A stretch of DNA of 64,000 bases from Octopus vulgaris. Taxonomy: Eukaryota. The stretch covers positions 73,470,001-73,534,000 of the forward strand of contig OX597830.1 in the NCBI GenBank assembly GCA_951406725.2, given 5' to 3'. Numbering within the stretch: position 1 is the stretch's first letter; each line of letters opens with the position of its first letter. The notes under the pieces are model-generated. The model was not told the origin of the DNA. It searched no databases and saw nothing but the letters and a program-made list of their open reading frames with translations. Below are positions 9,521 to 63,588 of this stretch, one piece after another. The position numbers and the translations under genes are program-made.

Positions 9521-9931
9521 CTTACTCTTTTACTCTTTTACTTGTTTCAGTCATTTGACTGTGGCCATGCTGGAGCACCGCCTTTAGTCGAGTAAATCGA
9601 CCCAGGACTTATTCTTTGTAAGTCTAGTACTTATGTTATCGGTCTCTTTTGCCGAACCGCTAAGTTACGGGGACGTAAACACACCACCATCGGTTGTCAA
9701 GTGATGCTGGGGGACAAGCACAGACACACAAACATATACACACACATATATATACATACATACATACGACGGGCTTCTTTCAGTTTCCGTCTACCAAATC
9801 CACTCACAAGGCTTTGGTCGGCCCGAGGCTATAGTAGAAGACATTCGCCCAAGGTGCCACGCGGTGGGACTGAACCCGGAACCATGTGGTTGATAAGCAA
9901 GCTACTTACCACACAGCCACTCCTACGCCTA
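9521..9931 (-). mobile_element. SINE family B, full length
   Basis: Head taggcg.aggagtggctgtgtggtaag, ccttgggc core, internal microsatellite, tail ggcggtgctccagcatggccacagtcaaatgactgaaac plus (aaagagt)n. Confidence 0.9.
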
Positions 9932-14970: not shown

Positions 14971-15460
14971 AACGGGCTTCTTCTAGTCTCCGTCTGCCAA
15001 ATCCAGTCACAAGGCTTTGGTCGGCTCGAGGATATAGAAGACACTTGCCCAAGGTGCTACGCAGTGGGACTGAACGCGGAACCATATGGTTGGGGAGCAA
15101 GCTTCCTATAACACAGCCACGACTTGTCTTATTCTTTTTACTTGTTTCAGTCAGTGACTGCGGGCATGCTGGAGCACCGGCTTTAAGGTCTTTTTTCTTT
15201 AGTCGAAGCAATCGAGCCCAGGACTTATTATTGTCAGCCTAGTACTTATTCTATCGGTTTCTTTTGCCGGACCGCTAATGATATGACGTATTCACACAAA
15301 CATCCGTTATTGAGCGATGGTGAGTGGGGGGACAAACATACACACACACGACGGGCTTCTTTCAGTTTCTGCCTACGAAGTCTGCTCAAGGCTTTCATCG
15401 GGCCGAGGCTATAGTAGAAGACTATGCCACGCAGTGGGACTGAACGCGGAACCATGTTGT
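14971..15460 (-). mobile_element. Two adjacent SINE B copies
   Basis: 5' half at 14971-15121 and a diverged near-full copy at 15135-15460. Confidence 0.8.
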
Positions 15461-17895: not shown

Positions 17896-18311
17896 TACTC
17901 TTTACTCTTTTACTTGTTTAAGTCATTTGACTGCGGCCATGCTGGAGCACCGCCTTTAGTCGAGCAACTCGACCCCGGGACTTATTCTTTTGTAAGCACA
18001 GTACTTATTATATCGGTCTCTTTTGCCGAACCGCTAAGTTACGAGGACGTAAACACACCAGCATGGGTTGTCAAGCAATGCTAGGGGGACAAACACAGAC
18101 ACACAAACATATACACACACACTTATATATATATATACATATATACGACGGCATTCTTTCAGCCTCCGCCTACCAAATCCACTCACAAGGCATTGGTCGG
18201 CCCGGGGCTATAGTAGAAGACACTTGCCCGAAGGTGCCACGCAGTGGGACCGAACCCGAAACCATGTGGTTGGTAAACAAGCTACTTACCACACAGCCAC
18301 TCCTGCGCCTA
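17896..18311 (-). mobile_element. SINE family B, full length
   Basis: Head, core, internal microsatellite and tail all present. Confidence 0.9.
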
Positions 18312-19672: not shown

Positions 19673-19845
19673 TAGGCGCAGGAGTGGCTGTGTAGTAAGT
19701 AGCTTGCTTACCAACCACATGGTTCCGGGTTCAGTCCCACTGCGTGGCACCTTGGGCAAGTGTCTTCTACTATAGCCTCGGGCCGACCGAAGTCTTGTGA
19801 GTGGATTTGATAGACAGAAACTGAAAGAAGCCCTTCGTATATATG

Positions 19846-19884
<39 letters not shown>

Positions 19885-20085
19885 ATGTTTGCCAACCCCC
19901 CCCCCCCAAAAAAAACATCGCTTGGTATATTTACGTCCCCGTAACTTAGCGGTTCGGCAAAAGAGACCGATAGAATAAGTACTAGGGTTACAAAGAATAA
20001 GTCCTGGGGGTCGATTTGCTCGAGTAAAGGCGGTGCTCCAGCATGGCCACAGTCAAATGACTGAAACAAGTAAAAGAGTAAAGAA
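19673..20085 (+). mobile_element. SINE family B, full length
   Basis: taggcgcaggagtggctgtg...ccttgggcaagt...ggcggtgctccagcatggccacagtcaaatgactgaaacaagtaaaagag. Confidence 0.9.
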
Positions 20086-20093
20086 TATATATG

Positions 20094-24722: not shown

Positions 24723-25319
24723 TTATTTATATATATATATATATACACACACACAATTTGAATAAGTTAGCAAGAAGTCTATATTTATTCCGCATTGTAA
24801 TTCTAGGATCCGAGAAAACTATTCTTTCGGATTGTTTTGTTTTTCTTTTTCTTCTCCTTGTTCCTCTTAGTCTAAGTATTTCCTTTTGAAGTCGCATGGC
24901 ATTTTAGGCTTTGATGTTTGATTGTTTGGTTATCTGTTGCACAAATCTCAATGATCACATGTGGAATTAATAATTTTCAAACAGTGGAATAAATTTGGAA
25001 TAGAGATAAATATTTAGACTACAAAATGAAACATTCTTCAACTAGAAGAAAAAATCATGTGTGCGCACTCGCGCATATACATATTTTTTTTGTGTGTGTG
25101 TATGTGTGTGTGTGTGTGAGTGAATATAAATAATTTTCGTTTCTTTTTATGAAAACAAAAAAAAAGATATATAGAACTACAAAAAAGAAGTGCACGTGTG
25201 AAATTGAGACAGAGACAAAAACCATTGATTAGAGAACGAACATGAAATTCGGGCCAACGATTTGGTATAAGCCCACGCTTCTATACATTTCATCATATTC
25301 AAATAATACTAATTATTTA

Positions 25320-25532
25320 TTTACTAGCCACAAGGGGCTAAACACAGAGAGGACAAACGAGGACAGACAAACGGATTAAGTCGATTATATCGACCCCAGT
25401 GCGTAACTGGTACTTATTTAATCGACCCCGAAAGTCGACCTCGGCGGAATTTGAACTCAGAACGTAATGGCAGACGAAATACCGTTAGGCATTTCGGCCG
25501 GCATGCTAACGTTTCTGCCAGGTCGCCGCCTT
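25320..25532 (-). mobile_element. SINE family A
   Basis: TSD caaataatac at about 25300-25309 and 25535-25544. Confidence 0.85.
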
Positions 25533-25769
25533 AACAAATAATACCAGGTAACTTCCCGTATTCTCGCGCGTGAGCTCTTGATTTTACTAACCTCTTCGCG
25601 GCTACTATTTCGCCTCTAATATCTATTCCTAAAATCTCCACATACATATCTAACGGATGGCTTACATTGGTTGCAATCAATTAATGTATTGCACTTATCA
25701 AGATTTCTGCGACATGGTCAGGTGGTAGACCAGCCAGTTTATTCTTAAGTCTAGTATTATTTTATATAC

Positions 25770-26516: not shown

Positions 26517-27365
26517 CAGGGTGGCCCAAAATTCACTGAGGAGTTTTTATTTTTTATTTACTCCTTTATTTTTACAAATAGGTGTATGAAGTTTTAATTC
26601 AATATAGAGAGATAATGGAGATTAATTCGCATTAGTCCTTTTTCATCATACCTCTGCATTACGTATGAAAAATGTCATCTTTTAAATGGCATCCATTTTC
26701 AGCTTCACACATCGATGCGCTTTCCCAAAGATGTTCCATGACAGCTGTAAGGGTTTCAGGGTCCAGTTCTCTGATTTCTCTAGTGATATTCTCCTTCAGT
26801 TGCTCCAGGGTTTCTGGTTTATTGACACAAATCTGCTCCTTGACGTACCCCAGCAAGTCAGGGCTGGTCAGGTTTGAGGAAGGCGATCGCCAAGTAACAT
26901 CGCAGTAGCGAGAGATGATTCTCTCTCCAAAATATTGCCTCTGCAACTGCATTGTATCTCTTGCTGGATGCACAGTTGCCTCATCTTGCTGGAACCACAT
27001 ATCGGGCCCACGTTGAATGGCCGGACACAATAAGTTCTCGATCGTAGACCTGTACCGTTCAGCAGCCACAGTGACAGCATTCCCATAATCTTCTTCAAAG
27101 AAAGAAAACCCGATTATCTCATTCATCATAATTGCTCATCACACTGTACACTTTATGGGGTGCATTTCTCTTTGGTGGTCTCTGGGCTTGAATAACTGAT
27201 TTTGATAGAACAATTTCACTACTTGGGTGCGCTGTGCGGCGACGTATTTTTCTATAATTGATTTCCAGGATTTAGTCCATAAAATCCCTGAAAAAAAGAG
27301 GGGAAAAGAAGGTTAAAGATACAAGAACTATCAAAGATTGCAACCCCTCAGTTAGTTTTGAGCCA

Positions 27366-30693: not shown

Positions 30694-30715
30694 CACACAC
30701 ACACACACACATATT

Positions 30716-30947
30716 TAGGCGGCGAGCTTGCAGAAACGTTAGCACGCCGGGCGAAATGCTTAGCGGTATTTCGTCTGTCGTTACGTTCTGAGTTCAAATT
30801 CCGCCGAGGTCGACTTTGCCTTTCATCCTCTTGGGGTCAATAAATAAAGTACCAGTTTCGCACTGAGGTCGATGTAATCGATTTAATCCCTTTGTCTGTC
30901 CTTGTTTGTCCCCTCTATGTTTAGCCCCTTGTGGGTAGTAAAGAAAT
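30716..30947 (+). mobile_element. SINE family A
   Basis: Near-consensus monomer. Confidence 0.9.
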
Positions 30948-31671
30948 ATATATATATATATATAACTGTGTGTTGAACAAATTCTCTGCATAAGAAATGT
31001 GTTATCTCGTTTATCAATGACATTTCAAATACTTGTCCAGAAAGGTTAAAAAATTTAGAGTGTTTCCACAACAGAATAAAGTTACCGAACCATTGTTCTA
31101 TAAATGCATAAAATGAAGTTATTCCCCATGAATCTACTCTTCCAGTTTTCCTAATAAGAGGGAGGTAACTACGTAGTACTACATTTTCTATTATCTCCCT
31201 TGTTAAAAAAAACCCCCTTCATCGACTTAACTTTATCTTTTATTTTGCATCTATTTAAATCATGGACTGTGCCCATGCTGGAGCACAAGTTTCAAGGATT
31301 TAGGCGACCAAGTCCACCGGGATTTCTTAGTCTGTTATTTGTTCTATCGGTCTAGTTTGCCAACTCACTGATTTACGAGGGAGAAAAGACCCAATACTGG
31401 TTGTAAAGACTGAAAGCCTACATACATACATGCACATACACACACATACACACATACATACATACATACATACATACATACATACATACATACATACATA
31501 CATACATACATACATACATACATACATTGTCCTCCAAACATATGTATACACACAGTAAGAAAAGAAAACTTATAGAAATATCTATAACCTCTACAATTAC
31601 GAGAGGTACTCAAGACGGTGCCTGTTAGCTTCGAGACACGAATTACTACGGCGTACTGCTGTCTGAGTGAA

Positions 31672-32591: not shown

Positions 32592-32996
32592 TTACTTGTT
32601 TCAGTCATTTGACTGTGGCCATGCTGGAGCACCGCCTTTAGTCGAGCAAATCGACCCCAGGACTTATTCTTTGCAAGCCCAGTACTTATTCTATCGGTTC
32701 TCTTTTGCCGAACCGCTACTTTACGGGGACGGAAACATACCAGCATCGGTTGTCAAGCGATATTGGGGGGGGGGGACAAACACAGACACACACACATACA
32801 TACATACATACATATACATATACATACACACACACACAGACACACACACACACACACACACACATACACATATATATATATATTTATATGTACGACGGGC
32901 TTCTTTCAGTTTCCGTCTACCAAACACACGGCGCCACGCAGTGGGACTGAACCCGGAACTATGCGGTTCGTAAGCAAGCTACTTACCACACAGCCA
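32592..32996 (-). mobile_element. SINE family B with internal deletion
   Basis: Tail, internal microsatellite and head present. Confidence 0.85.
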
Positions 32997-33680: not shown

Positions 33681-33700
33681 CATCCATCTGTTTGTCAGTC

Positions 33701-33732
<32 letters not shown>

Positions 33733-33736
<4 letters not shown>

Positions 33737-35885
33737 TGATTGATTGATTGATTGATTGATGATTGATTGATTCTAGTTTCAGCTTATGAGCTGTGGCCAT
33801 GCTGGGGCACCGCCATTTGGTGTTGCTACTTGGTTTCACTTCATGGAGGCTTTCTAGCAACTGCTATTTGGTGCATGAGAGAGTTCGATGCAGCTGCCCT
33901 CATCTGCCCCTCCTGCCGTGAAGTTGGTTCATCTGGGACACCTGACAGGAAGAGATCCAGCTTCATTTTAAAGACATCTGTATCCACCCCATGCAGGTCT
34001 CTCAGGTTCTTCGGGAGGATATTGAAGAGCTGCGGGCCTCGGAAGCCCAGGCTATCACAGAATCTTGTCCTACATCTTGATGGCAGGTTTGGAGTCCTAG
34101 GCACCACGCAGTGGCGCCCAGTTCTGGCATTTGCGTAACTCTCGATGCCAAAGTTCAGGACACTTCCCTCCAGGATCTTCCAGATGTATATTATGGCATA
34201 TCTTTCCCGCCTACGCTCCAGGGAATATAATTTTAATCTCTTGAGTCTTTCCCAGTAGCTTACATTCTGCATAGAGGCTATCTTCTTTGTGTAGCTTCGT
34301 TGGATCGCCTCAAGTTCTGTGATCAACTTGACACTGGATGGTGACCATAGCTGAGAGCAATAGTCAAAGTGGCTTAGGACAAGTGTCTTCCAGAGGACCA
34401 TCATGGTTTCTTGTTCTCTTGTTCTAAAGGTTCTAAGAATCCATCCAGCCATCCGTCTACATTTCATTGTCAGTTTAGCAACATGTACATGAAAGGTCGC
34501 GTCATCACTCATGTGAATACCCAGGTCACGCACTGATTGTGCCTCTGGGATTGCAATCCCTCCGGGTCCAGTGTATTCATTGGGTATTGCATTCAGTTTT
34601 GCATGCTGATAGTATAAAGCTTGAAACTTTCCAGCATTGAACTGCATGCTATTCTTTTCAGCCCACTTGTATATTTCGTCCAGCTCACATTGCAGGTGTT
34701 TAGTGTCCTCAGGGTTCTGTATTGCCTGTGAAACTTTTGTATCATCTGCATAACTTGTGATCGTGGCTCTCTGCGTGACTGAGGGCATGTCTGAGAGGGC
34801 CATTATGAACAGTAGTGGTCCCAGAACAGTGCCCTGCGGAACACCGCTCACTATTTGTGTGTTAATGGAGGTGGCCCCATTGGCTACTACCACCTGACTT
34901 CTATCCTTCAGAAAGTCATGAAGCCATTCTCCCAGTTTTCCAACTATGTTGAGATCACGCAGTTTGTGACATATCATTCCATGATCGACTTTATCAAAGG
35001 CCTTTGCAAAGTCGAGATATATCACTTCCACATTTGAGTGGTTGAGCAGCCGTTTCAGAACCCAGTCATAGTGTTGTAGGAGCTGAGTTAAACAGCTTCT
35101 CCCTGGTCGGAAACCATGTTGGGTGTCGGACAGCAAGTCATTCTCTTCAAGGAAGGTGATCAGCTTCCTTCTGACTATTCGTTCCATGACCTTGCTGATG
35201 TGTGAGGTCAGAGAGATAGGTCTATAGTTCTTGGCTTCCGCTCTGCTACCTCCTTTATGAATGGGGCATATTTTACCTTCCTTCAGTTTTCCTGGAAGTT
35301 TGCCAGCTGCAAGGAAGCTCTGAAAGAGGAACTGCAGTGGTCTTGCTAGGACTCTCTTACATGCTTTTAGGAGGATTGCCGGGAATCCATCGGGGCCAGT
35401 AGCTGAGTCTGTTTTCATTTCATCTATAGCCTTGGTTACATCGTCTTCCTTTATATCGATGTAATCTATCGTCGCCGCCTCTGATTTTATATCTGCAGTG
35501 GTAAAAAAGTCAGTTGGATTGGTGATTTGGAGATGCCCAAGGGGTGGAGTGAAAACACTCTTGAATTGCTCATTCAGTATTTCACTTACCCTCATTGGTT
35601 TTCCTGTAAGTGTGCCATCCTTTTCGAGGAGTGGCCCTATTCTACAGTGCACTGTAGCTGTTTCTTTGGCATACCTGTAGAAAGCTCTGGGGTTAGATTT
35701 TATGTTTTCTATAGCCCAGGCTTCTTTGTCTGCTCTTTCTTTTTCATGGGAGAGTTGCAGACATTTTTCGATTTCCAACAGTTTTATTTTTAGGCGGGAC
35801 TTTTCACTGCTTTCAATCTGTTTGTTTAGGCGATTTGAAAATTTCGTACGCCGTCTCATTAAAATTTTCCTCTCTCTGGGGATTT
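33733..35885 (-). mobile_element. 5'-truncated CR1-group LINE with short 3' UTR and (AATC)n tail
   Basis: RT ORF ends at 33841; 3' UTR 33840-33772; (TTGA)n on + strand at 33733-33771; no APE endonuclease visible. Confidence 0.9.
33841..35885 (-). CDS. LINE ORF2 reverse transcriptase, partial, open frame
   Basis: [59 protein letters not shown] motifs; no stop over about 680 codons. The YIYI N-terminus of the computed ORF is only (TA)n read-through. Confidence 0.9.
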
Positions 35886-36019
35886 TTTTTTTTTTTACCT
35901 TGTTAACAATTAACACGGAAAAAATTTTTAAAATAGTTAACTCCATTTTTTTTTCATATATATATATATATATACGTATATACATATATACATATATATA
36001 TATATATACACACGCGCAC

Positions 36020-36215
<196 letters not shown>

Positions 36216-36335: not shown

Positions 36336-37106
36336 TATAGAGGTTTTCCATTAATGCAAAATTTTCATATCAAGTGGTAACATTATAGAGAAGATAGATA
36401 TATAGACAAAGATGTGGATTTAAATTTTAAGAACATTTGAGGTAGTGGAGCCCATCAACTGACTGACTAAAATTCAGTTGTTCCGGACAACTGTAAGATT
36501 CTGAGAGAAAAGAACAAATGAAAGGAGACAATAAAGATTTTCTATTTATACAAATGGAGTGAAGGGGATGTCAGAGCTCCATATGAAATAATTTATGTAG
36601 AGAACAGGATTGTCACAACTAAAATGCCAAGTACTACTATTTGATGAACAGATTTTGCGTTAGGAGAACTAGGTCAATGTCAAGTGGTCACAATAACATT
36701 CACAGAGAATGCAGAGACCTTATAAAACCTATGCACATCATCACAACAATCAGCCTATAGTACTTTGACACGTTAGAATAAAGGAAAAAATATAGATCTA
36801 AAATTTATTCAATTTAGAGAAAAGACTATCACTTATTATGAGTAGGCATAGTGCCTATATATTTAAATATATATAGAAGCATATAAAACACACACACACA
36901 AACGTATATATACAATATATGTAAATCTTTATCGCGGGTTTCTGCGGTCGATAGGAATCTATACTTTTTTCACATTATAATTGTCTGGTAAAATAAGCAT
37001 TTCCGCGCCTAAGAGTAAACAAAGAATCACACTTACTGTATGGAAAACGAAACTTGGGAGACGAGTGTGAGGTCTTGTTTTGCATTTATAATAAAAGAGA
37101 TATATA

Positions 37107-37410
37107 AGGCGGCCATCTGGCAGAAACGTTAGCACGCCAGGCGAAATGTTTAGCGGTATTTCGTCTGCCGTTACGTTCTGAGTTCAAATTCTACCGAGGT
37201 TGACTTTGCCTTTCATCCCTTCGGGGTCGATAAATTAAGTACTAGTTACGCACTGGGGTCGATGTAATTGACTTTTTCCGTTTGTCTGTCCTTGTTTGTC
37301 CCCTCTAAGTTTAGCCCCGTGTGGGTAATAAAGAAACATATTGTAACGGCAGACGAAATACGGCTACGCATTTCGCCCGGCATGCTAACGATTCTGCTAG
37401 CTCGCCGCCT
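37107..37410 (+). mobile_element. SINE A followed by an inverted copy of a SINE A head
   Basis: 37343-37410 is the reverse complement of the ~70-nt head. Confidence 0.8.
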
Positions 37411-37640
37411 AAAGGAAGCGACGATAGTCAAACGTACATGCAGAGTACAAATAGATGAAACACAAAAAGTCAGCTCAGGAAACTGTAAATGATTTACCAA
37501 GAGGAAAGTATACGTTCCCTATTTCACGCGCCCTCAGTGAAACTTCATAGGTCTGATAGACCACTGTTGATCTGAAACTAAACATGAACAACAGTGGTAA
37601 CTACAATAGCAACAGTTAACAATTAATAATTCTGGAAATT

Positions 37641-42065: not shown

Positions 42066-42272
42066 TGCAGGCTAAGTGAGCAGGCCAACAGAAGAAAGAG
42101 TGAGAGAAAGTTGTGGCGAAAGAGTACAGCAGGGATCGCCACCGCACCCCCTGCCGGAGCCTCGTGGAGATTTAGGTGTTTTTGTTCAATAAACACTCAC
42201 AACGTCCGGTCTGATAATCGAAGCCGCGATCCTACGACCGCGAGTCCGCTGCACTAACCACTGGGCCATTGC
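41980..42272 (-). mobile_element. SINE family D, alternative tail (cacggtga) into (TA)n
   Basis: Head tggcccagtggttagtgcagcggactcgcggtcg; body cgccacaactttctctcactc. Confidence 0.85.
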
Positions 42273-42281
42273 TACACACAC

Positions 42282-42331
<50 letters not shown>

Positions 42332-42339
42332 CATTATTA

Positions 42340-42408
<69 letters not shown>

Positions 42409-43620
42409 GAGAGGGCTGGGACCAAAGCTGGCTTCGTGGGTGCTCTGATCAATTTGGATCAATCGAAAGCATTCGATAGCGTCAACCATCACTACTTGGA
42501 AGCCGCCCTGAAAGCAGACGGTTTCGGACCATTTTCAGAGTCTGGATCGCTGCAATGCATAGCAGCACTTGTTGAGTGGTCAAAGTAAATGGTCACCTAC
42601 CGCATACTCGGTCCGTTAGGGCTACCAACCGTCGCCTCTACTGTACGCATTGGCACTCGAGCCACTGCTGCGGAAGTTGGAACAGCTAGGGGGCGTCCTT
42701 TTCGAACTGGGACAAGGAAGGACAGTGTCGGCATACACGGACGACGTCACTGTCATGGTGTCGGGTGTCACTGAAGTGAAGACGGTCGGCACCATCCTAA
42801 AGGAATAATAGTCAGTTGCAGGCCTAGAATCAACGCCGACAAATCGGTTGGTTTGCTGTTGGGCTCCTGGAGTGGCTGGACAATGCCATCGGACAGCATC
42901 GCCGGACGCTGGATCGACGGACCAGTTAAACTGCTTGGAGTTTGGTTTGGTTCTAACCTCCAAGTTAATAAGAACTGGGACGAAGTGACGAACAGAGTGA
43001 CCTGTCTTACCCAAATATAGGGTGAAAGGAAGCTGTCCCTGAAAGGTGGGGCAGAAGTAGCGAATGCTTACATCACCTTCTTTATCATTTATCTCCTGAC
43101 CTTCGTGCCTTGTCCCGGTTACTGCTTGAGCAGATTGGAGCGCCTCTTATTTAAATTCTTGTGGAAGGGATGCGTTCCAATGGTGAGGCGGTCAGTTTGT
43201 TGCCAGCATCCTCTGAGTGGCCGATTAGGTCTGCCGTGGCTCCTGATGCGCAGACACGCTCTTATTTACGCCACCTGCAACGGTTTCTGGACGGTGAGTG
43301 TGTGTGGGCTCCGTTTGTGAGACTAGTCTTTCCGCAGCTCGTCTACTTGACAGAGCTGCAGTCCTGGGTGAAGAAAAGGCCGAGATTGGGCAGCTAGCAC
43401 TTAGAATGTCCTCAGGCGGTCACAGCCCTCTACCAGTTGGGGAAAGGGATCGGTGGATGTTCTGCTTTAGAAATTTATAGAGTATTAGTGGCTGGGAGAT
43501 GCTACCGCATACTCTGGGAGACTGCGGGAACCGACGGAAACGAACAGGCTAGTCTGTTCCGAAGAACTTCTCAGTCGGGAACTATCAAGGATAATTTTCA
43601 AATGTCCTTGACCTGGCAGG
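42409..43620 (+). pseudogene. Tx1/L1-type LINE RT remnant
   Basis: ALINLDQSKAFDSVNHHYL...GFG, AYTDDVTV, VKLLGVWFG, LSLKG, LFKFLWKG...GRLGLP; stops and frameshifts. Confidence 0.85.
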
Positions 43621-47370: not shown

Positions 47371-47860
<490 letters not shown>

Positions 47861-58140: not shown

Positions 58141-58362
58141 ATTCTTTTACTCTCTTTTACATGTTTCAGTCATTTGACTGCGGCCATGCTGGAGCAACGC
58201 CTTTAGTCGAGTAAATCGACCCCAGGACATATTCTTTGCAAGCCTAGTAGTTATTTTATCGGATTCTTTTGCCGAATATGGGGACGTAAACACACCAGCA
58301 TCGGATGTCAAGTGATGTTAGGGGAACAAACACAGACACACTGACATATACAAACACATACG

Positions 58363-58793: not shown

Positions 58794-59058
58794 TGTATGT
58801 ATGTATGTATGTATATATGCAGGTATGTATGTCTATTCTTTGTACTCTCTTATTACATGTTTCAGTCATTTGACTGCAGCCATGCTGGAGCAACGCCTTC
58901 GATTCGAGTAAATCGACCCCAGGACATATTCTTTGCAAGCCTAGTAGTTATTTTATCGGATTCTTTTGCGAATATGGGGACGTAAACACACCAGCATCGG
59001 ATGTCAAGTGATGTTAGGGGAACAAACACAGACACACTGACATATACAAACACATACG

Positions 59059-59825: not shown

Positions 59826-60020
59826 TTCTTTTACTTGCTTCAGTCATTTGACTGCGGCCATGCTGGAGTACCGCCTTTAGTCGAATAAATCGACTCCAGG
59901 ACTTATTCCTTGTAAACCTAGTACTTATTCTAGCGGTATTTTTTTTTGCCAAAGCGCTAAGTTACTTGGACATAAATACCCGAACATCGGTTGTCAAAGG
60001 ATGATGGAGGGACAAACAGA
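59826..60020 (-). mobile_element. SINE B 3' half
   Basis: cagtcatttgactgcggccatgctggag tail. Confidence 0.8.
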
Positions 60021-63380: not shown

Positions 63381-63588
63381 ACTCTTTTACTTGTTACAGC
63401 GATTTGAATATGGCCATGGTGGAGCACCGTCTTTAGTCGACTTACTCTTTGTAAGCCTAGTACTTATTCTATCGGTTTCTTTTGCCGAACCGCTAGTTTA
63501 CGGGGACGTTAACATACCAGCATCGGGTGTCAAGCGATGTTAGGGACAAACACAGACACACACACACACACAGACACGGACACACACA

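Follow-up and report, generated by a model that had tools for sequence, protein, structure and literature searches.

A predicted two-hairpin 3' tail common to a radiation of CR1-like LINEs and an abundant SINE of Octopus vulgaris

The sharing of a 3' tail between a SINE and a CR1 LINE is a known arrangement that has been published for bivalves, and the pairing itself was to be expected. The bivalve BivaV-SINE2 and BivaCORE-SINE1, both tRNA-derived, carry the tail of CR1-14_CGi, with conserved stem-loops and compensatory mutations (Nishihara 2016, PMC4824008). The tail of the oyster Vhc_1 SINE is homologous to both CR1-1_CGi and CR1-14_CGi, either of which may be the partner (Matetovici 2016, PMC4758252). 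With zebrafish ZfL2-1 and ZfL2-2, it was determined by assay that the loop sets the specificity and that the stem is needed as a structure (Hayashi 2014, PMC4176376), and the eel pair UnaL2/UnaSINE1 has a stringent LINE with a 3' stem-loop and a terminal repeat (review PMC3747384). The 58 SINE-LINE tail pairs gathered in the same review are predominantly of CR1 and RTE type, and none of these 58 is from octopus. The octopus SINEs OK, OR1 and OR2 are described as tRNA-derived and abundant (Ohshima and Okada 1994, cited in PMC4824008, PMC4758252 and PMC5804259). SINEs account for about 12% of an octopus genome; the figure for O. vulgaris is 11.6% (PMC13282606). Repeat surveys of octopus list CR1 and SINE families as active, with no pairing of the two in their text (PMC13282606, PMC8967140, PMC9115989). 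No octopus SINE-CR1 pair or named SINE driver was found in the literature searched; one may already be described in Ohshima and Okada 1994, SINEBase, Repbase/Dfam or the Zenodo library of PMC13282606.

The window, i.e. the whole 64,000-nucleotide stretch of O. vulgaris DNA that was analysed, contains a copy of a young LINE lineage, designated C, with the following features.

33734-35898, minus: 5'-truncated copy of the young CR1-group LINE lineage C, 97.5% identical over 2305 nt (simple-repeat flank counted in) to a copy with the whole ORF2
33841-35898, minus: open ORF2 remnant with linker, reverse transcriptase (RVT_1 E 2e-30) and C-terminus; stop at 33843-33841
33815-33840, minus: short lineage-specific 3' UTR, not common to the SINE (agreement with SINE B at 5 of the 30 upstream bases)
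33795-33814, minus: predicted hairpin 1, GGC-G-GUGC-(CCCA)-GCAU-G-GCC with a G·G mismatch
33780-33793, minus: hairpin 2, CAGCU-(CAUA)-AGCUG, the stem-loop of the preliminary description; every cell paired in the 13 hand-picked rows
33776-33779, minus: AAAC after hairpin 2, invariant in the alignment columns
33734-33775, minus: TAG and the (AATC)n terminal repeat, then (TA)n; young lineage C end

Read on the minus strand, the LINE tail is thus GGCGGTGCCCCAGCATGGCC (33814-33795), A, CAGCT-CATA-AGCTG (33793-33780), AAAC (33779-33776), TAG and (AATC)n to 33734. A (TA)n microsatellite flanks the copy at 33700-33733 and 35977-36215. The whole ORF2 of other lineage C copies was 1039 aa long with an endonuclease and a reverse transcriptase (PF14529, PF03372, PF00078). 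The upstream frame (ORF1) of 313 aa had a CCCH-like cysteine pattern and weak Torus and Myb/SANT matches below the cut-off. The last 200 aa of ORF2 were 100% identical in all 150 scored genome matches of the best-match list, which indicates that lineage C is very young. As a rule, members of the CR1 group lack a C-terminal CCHC knuckle and poly(A) and end in a tandem repeat. No C-terminal CCHC-like motif was detected in the ORF2 of lineage C or D, and the elements end in a tandem repeat with no poly(A); the LINE lineages fit the CR1 group, the clade being assigned by anatomy and not by a reference tree. The nearest named protein homologues were unclassified Argonauta hians proteins (60-63% identity), the best unnamed ones reaching 69-74%.

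The second element, SINE B, is represented in the window by a full-length copy and by further copies recognised by their hairpin 1.

19676-20086, plus: full-length SINE B copy of about 410 nt with tRNA-like head, central microsatellite, body and tail
19685-19695 and 19728-19738: A-box-like and B-box-like sequences of the head (by eye)
20029-20067, plus: tail with the same layout as the LINE; loop 1 UCCA, hairpin 2 CAGUC-AAAU-GACUG, AAAC
20068-20086, plus: terminal repeat AAGT-AAAAGAGT, as in LINE lineage D
9563-9582, 15162-15181, 17935-17954, 32617-32636, 58182-58201, 58878-58897, 59856-59875 and 63412-63431, minus: hairpin 1 of other SINE B copies
47804-47823, plus: hairpin 1 of another SINE B copy

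The head boxes were read against the A/B box consensus; no tRNA was detected in the head by ARAGORN and it had no Rfam match. Being short and high-copy, with a tRNA-like head and no ORF, SINE B appears to be a tRNA-derived SINE, and by description, not by sequence, it is probably one of OK, OR1 and OR2. It accounted for most of the 125 tails in a systematic sample of 800 kb. The divergence of SINE B subfamilies from their own majority was 2.7% (30 copies), 6.8% (43 copies) and 18-20% (8 and 8 copies). The CAGTC/GACTG stem was the same in old and young subfamilies, the loop YAAU gave way to AAAU and the repeat AAAAGAT to AAAAGAGT; AAAAGAT was present in 5 of 8 old copies and AAAAGAGT in 48 of 78 young ones. 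Most of 24 copies had no long target-site duplications, with 5 short or low-complexity matches, and nesting of SINE B in itself was seen in 2 of 46. At one locus, the 3' half of SINE B stood five times in tandem as a SINE-derived minisatellite, which was left out of the age estimates. Elsewhere in the window, copies of another abundant SINE lie beside an inverted copy of their own head (37101-37430, 2099-2321, 25316-25534, 30714-30951), and decayed fragments resemble, by eye, another reverse transcriptase and a Tc1/mariner transposase (42193-42588, plus; 26659-27135, minus).

The tail sequences quoted for the window LINE and SINE B in the preliminary description were both exact; its reading of the SINE B repeat as (AAAGAGT)n was corrected, the unit being mostly AAAAGAGT (8 nt). 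The lineage C and SINE B tails agreed at 31 of 39 nt; within the window, BLAST gave this match an E of 9.6e-7. A 12-mer tail core had 9 matches in the window compared with 0.14 expected, a number reached in none of 100 shuffles, and the match between the LINE and SINE B tails is beyond chance. The likeness to lineage C began abruptly at the first G of the tail; upstream of it, 5-14 of 30 bases of SINE B matched lineages C and D. Hairpin-1-like sites were found at 11 more places in the window, 10 of them in SINE B context. Genome-wide, exact tails numbered 8,477 for lineage C, 86,150 for SINE B, 554 for the D type and 5,530 for lineage E, with 0 matches of the reversed-pattern controls. At 29 of the 30 lineage C loci found by the ORF2 C-terminus the tail stood at the same offset, so it is a feature of the LINE family, as had been proposed, and not of one copy. 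Six of these 29 loci had a U·G wobble instead of U-A at the stem top. The possibility that a SINE fragment merely abuts the LINE copy, or that the match is accidental, is favoured by nothing but the shortness of the match; it is refuted by this constant offset together with the number of exact lineage C tails, and may be practically disregarded.

The tail of about 39 nt is predicted to fold as two hairpins, not one. The stem-loop noticed earlier is upheld, and the upstream 20 nt, which had been passed over, are predicted to form a second, better conserved hairpin. The SINE B tail fold had a z value of -3.85, with none of 200 shuffles as stable, and the single-sequence folds of four short tails gave two hairpins with z values from -2.3 to -3.9. 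RNAalifold on 13 rows returned the same two hairpins. The overall fold of a longer LINE end of 136 nt was ordinary (z -0.9). The consensus of hairpin 1 was GGY-G-GUGC-loop-GCAU-G-RCC with a G·G mismatch, the pair 3:18 being C-G, U-G or U-A. Hairpin 1 was identical at 17-19 of 20 positions across six lineages and SINE B (19 of 20 between SINE B and D), and the C/T difference between the LINE and SINE B lies inside the loop. A search of Rfam gave no match.

In the tail alignment of 13 rows, 97.4% of 156 cells were paired compared with 21-41% in slid controls, and in hairpin 2 all cells paired. Three pairs of the tail were changed on both sides, two of them in hairpin 2 (C-G <-> U-A). The cells paired and the covariation score were reached in 0 of 500 shuffle controls, and the number of covarying pairs in 122 of 500. 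The covariation consists of few independent events and, since the rows are related and hand-picked, it is support and not proof. In lineage E, another stem pair was G-C in 18, A-U in 9, mismatched in 1 and unparsed in 2 of 30 copies; this switch is independent of those in the other lineages. The covarying 5-bp stem of the preliminary description, with two changed pairs between two sequences, was weak by itself, and its support is supplied by the other lineages. The claim that the covariation marks the recognised structure was incomplete, because there are two predicted hairpins and because the specificity of zebrafish L2 resides in the loop and not in the stem (PMC4176376). A lineage D variant whose hairpin 2 has a C·A mismatch was present in 14 copies, its 3' arm being equal to that of SINE B. 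Seven of 12 informative copies shared a haplotype that was seen in 2 of 77 ordinary D copies, from which it follows that at least one mismatched source was active. The spread of this variant speaks against a strict need for the stem.

From the flanks and further searches, seven more LINE lineages (D-J) were obtained besides C, i.e. eight in all, which share the tail plan with changes that keep the pairing.

Lineage D: CAGCC-GGAT-GGCTG, AAACAAGT(AAAAGAGT)n
Lineage E (distant): longer first loop, GGCCA/TGGCC or GACCA/TGGTC stem, three subfamilies
Lineage F: CAGCC-TTCG-GGCTG, AAACATTTTTAAGGA
Lineage G: CAGCC-CTG-GGCTG, AAACCAGT(AAAAGAT)n
Lineage H: CAGCC-TTAG-GGCTG, AAACATRT(AAAAGAAT)n
Lineage I: hairpin 2 CAGTC-CTTG-GACTG
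Lineage J: hairpin 2 CAGCT-CTG/TTG-AGCTG

The tail type tracked the tree of ORF2 ends (34 chosen rows out of 206 unique ends), with 7 label changes for 8 groups compared with 23.1 after shuffling. In the tree G came first, followed by D, by H and finally by C together with F, I and J. The ORF2 proteins of C and D were 64% identical and both intact, the frame of D being 1066 aa. The lineage ages were 2% for mid C, 4.5% for F and 7% for G (small samples, those of G and H being best matches), which puts these three at about the age of the main SINE B waves. LINE insertions cut to little more than the tail were found at eight loci, often inside (TA)n, and truncation at hairpin 1 seems to be common. 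One lineage D copy had its tail duplicated in tandem. The 3' end of lineage D was covered by contigs of four runs guessed to be RNA, a coverage that shows neither transcription nor ends. Horizontal transfer of lineage D was considered and found no support, as the near-identical sequences came from one organism (16 runs, 5 studies) and from small metagenome shares.

A third tRNA-like head, X, normally runs on into other bodies. Its first 150 nt joined directly to the tail gave 1,795 genome pattern matches; among the 100 listed, 56 SINE-B-type (X-B) and 44 C-type (X-C) junctions were counted by eye. All 20 examined copies (10 X-B and 10 X-C) were without the rest of the X body and about 1% diverged. 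X-B kept the hairpins of SINE B and ended in poly(A) in 10 of 10 copies, in which no long target-site duplications were seen by eye; X-C had CAGCT-CAAG-AGCTG and an AAAAAC-type repeat. Judged by these junctions, head X captured the tail twice, from SINE B and from LINE lineage C, and each capture founded a family; X-B and X-C look like SINE families caught at birth. Two captures, each followed by amplification, suggest that the tail suffices for mobilisation and may be a portable mobilisation signal. Lineage C would then have a passenger of its own, X-C, and the AAAAGAGT repeat would be a mark of ancestry and not a requirement. Full SINE B bodies with LINE tails gave 3 matches (two C, one H) with the junction at hairpin 1, and one SINE copy contained a piece of the lineage F 3' UTR; such chimeras show contact with several lineages and need not show recognition.

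The tail of SINE B might also be a relic, the element being mobilised today by an unrelated LINE (Tx1/L1 or RTE). The poly(A) end of all examined X-B copies would suit this explanation, and O. vulgaris is reported to have further active LINE clades (PMC13282606, Table 1). However, both hairpins were kept through about 20% SINE B divergence, the tail alone was captured twice and then amplified, and long target-site duplications were missing from the 10 X-B (by eye) and from most SINE B copies, which makes a relic quite improbable.

The preliminary description held that this LINE or a sister lineage mobilises SINE B. The origin of the SINE B tail in this LINE radiation was upheld, and the reference to a sister proved necessary: over the terminal 20 nt of SINE B, D matched at 20, H at 16, G at 14, F at 11, I at 7 and C at 6 positions (the reference for the match with D was one SINE B copy, not that of the window). 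In sequence, the SINE B tail most resembles those on the G/D/H side of the tree, and that of D above all. The terminal repeat of SINE B was AAAAGAGT, as in D, that of lineage C was AATC and X-B ended in poly(A). Since the loop sets the specificity in L2 (PMC4176376), the differing loop of lineage C counts against the window LINE as a strict partner. No LINE with precisely the CAGTC-AAAT-GACTG hairpin, for which a search had been proposed as a check, was seen among the 48 inspected of 139 matches or in a separate set of 5, all inspected. Lineage I has the stem of SINE B with another loop and end, and the SINE B loop AAAU matched no LINE loop found.

Lineage D had about 550 copies with a median divergence of 0.5% and is younger than the SINE B waves. 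Older lineage D copies were found neither by pattern nor by BLAST. The D pattern search gave 0 mismatches in the 100 listed of 505 matches (the list may be sorted), the D-end pattern with another repeat had 9 matches (7 D-loop and 2 G-loop tails), and no copies 73%-97% identical to D were detected in 1.9 Mb of genome sequence searched. The radiation as a whole overlaps the SINE B waves in time; D alone does not. Going by age, most of SINE B more probably owes its spread to the sister lineage then active (C, F, G) or to D ancestors of low copy number. A succession G-H-D mirrored by the SINE B repeats AAAAGAT, AAAAGAAT and AAAAGAGT was rejected as stated, because G (7%) is far younger than the old SINE B (18%) and because G, D and H are not successive in the tree.

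The integration sites were compared by their (TA)n flanks. (AT)4 followed the 3' end in 22 of 29 C, 24 of 30 D, 34 of 56 G and H, and 15 of 78 young SINE B copies (p 4e-12 and 1e-6), with a background of 7.6%. Expressed as 3' (TA)n flanks, the values were 76-87% for the young LINE lineages, about 60% for G and H, and 19% for young SINE B. On the 5' side, (TA)n was found in 13 of 19 D and 13 of 55 SINE B copies (p 7e-4), with a background of 5.8%; two masked rows and one duplicate were dropped for D and one masked row for C. The SINE B flanks are enriched for (TA)n, far less than those of the LINEs. No paper on CR1 elements in TA repeats was found in the literature.

A strict one-to-one pair, in which D alone drives SINE B and stayed low-copy until a recent burst, is doubtful, though a serious candidate. 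The identity of all 20 terminal positions, loops (GGAU and AAAU) that differ by two transitions, the intact D frame and the overlap of the young X-B copies (1%) with the D burst are in agreement with it. The failure to find older D copies, the stronger 5' (TA)n bias of D, the absence of the D tail from the three SINE-LINE chimeras and the spread of X-B with poly(A) instead of a D-like repeat are not. The weaker (TA)n bias of SINE-B-type tails could instead indicate that SINE B is driven by yet another, unsampled CR1 lineage whose hairpin 2 resembles that of the SINE and whose target choice is looser. Such a lineage could have been missed, as D with its 550 copies is itself absent from the 800-kb sample and the genome searches covered the best 40-150 matches. 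Yet a search with the ORF2-end motif and non-C stem patterns led to known lineages only among the 100 listed of 139 matches, and with an outside homologue as the query 95 of 95 matches lay at one identity level, the window C copy included. An unsampled driver is unlikely, more so than D alone.

The near invariance of hairpin 1 together with the drift of the hairpin 2 loops points to a looser, shared reading of the tail. The possibility that the lineages all recognise chiefly the invariant hairpin 1, with any hairpin 2 accepted beside it, that SINE B kept one tail and rode successive lineages including C and that D may have taken its repeat from SINE RNA is ahead of the strict pair, at somewhat less than an even chance. 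It is consistent with the identity of hairpin 1 among six lineages and SINE B and with the constancy of the SINE B hairpin 2 stem while the LINE lineages turned over. In lineage C the tail loops found genome-wide were CGUG, CAUG, CAUA and a few others, a drift during which activity was kept. The chimeras carry C and H tails, and AAAAGAGT is present in SINE B copies older than any D copy found. Against this, template switching or gene conversion can make chimeras without recognition, SINE B is without the strong (TA)n bias of lineage C, and strict loop reading has been shown for L2 (PMC4176376). The mismatched D variant gave no polarity for a flow into D, nor as an ancestral D.

The reading preferred by us, to which a probability of about 0.8 is assigned, is that the tail ends a CR1-group radiation, where it is likely the RNA signal for ORF2, and that SINE B, which has an old copy of this tail, likely uses ORF2 supplied by at least one lineage. 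According to this reading, transcription of the SINE by Pol III from its tRNA-like head would yield an RNA with hairpin 1 and hairpin 2 at its end, followed by AAAC and a short repeat, by which SINEs would mimic the LINE tail. By analogy with the L2 assays, the ORF2 protein would bind the tail hairpins and nick TA-rich DNA, and reverse transcription would start in the terminal repeat, whose priming role is taken from the same assays. An extension of the preferred reading, which we regard as speculative and unlikely, is that one SINE with the same tail over about 20% divergence rode successive coexisting CR1 lineages, passed the tail on to a new SINE and gave the terminal repeat to D. If true, it would be a SINE-to-LINE transfer of the repeat into lineage D, the reverse of the usual LINE-to-SINE direction.

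The analysis links one dominant octopus SINE with a CR1 radiation in which two young lineages are intact. What is new here is the double capture of the tail by a third tRNA head, together with unusually clear natural variants. The eight LINE tails, three SINE tails, mismatch variant and poly(A) variant form a natural panel. It bears on the strictness with which stem, loop and repeat are recognised by a stringent LINE, so far assayed mainly in fish L2, and on whether a SINE can change its driver without changing its tail. The double tail capture and the question of the driver make a good test system.

In comparison with the described systems, the octopus elements resemble those of bivalves (PMC4824008) in being mollusc tRNA-derived SINEs with a CR1 3' tail, several SINE heads sharing one tail. 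They differ in the tail sequence, as three octopus tail motifs had no tail match in the searched supplement of PMC4824008, and in that one genome allows the dating of eight donor lineages, of chimeras and of two captures that are recent. Similarly to the oyster Vhc_1 (PMC4758252), the SINE B tail has more than one CR1 candidate partner; unlike in that account, the octopus analysis included a test of the tail structure and a comparison of ages. With ZfL2-1, ZfL2-2 and UnaL2, the octopus LINEs share a 3' stem-loop and a terminal repeat. In contrast to these L2 systems, which are known from assays, the octopus tail is described from sequence alone and is predicted to have two hairpins, one of which is nearly invariant in sequence.
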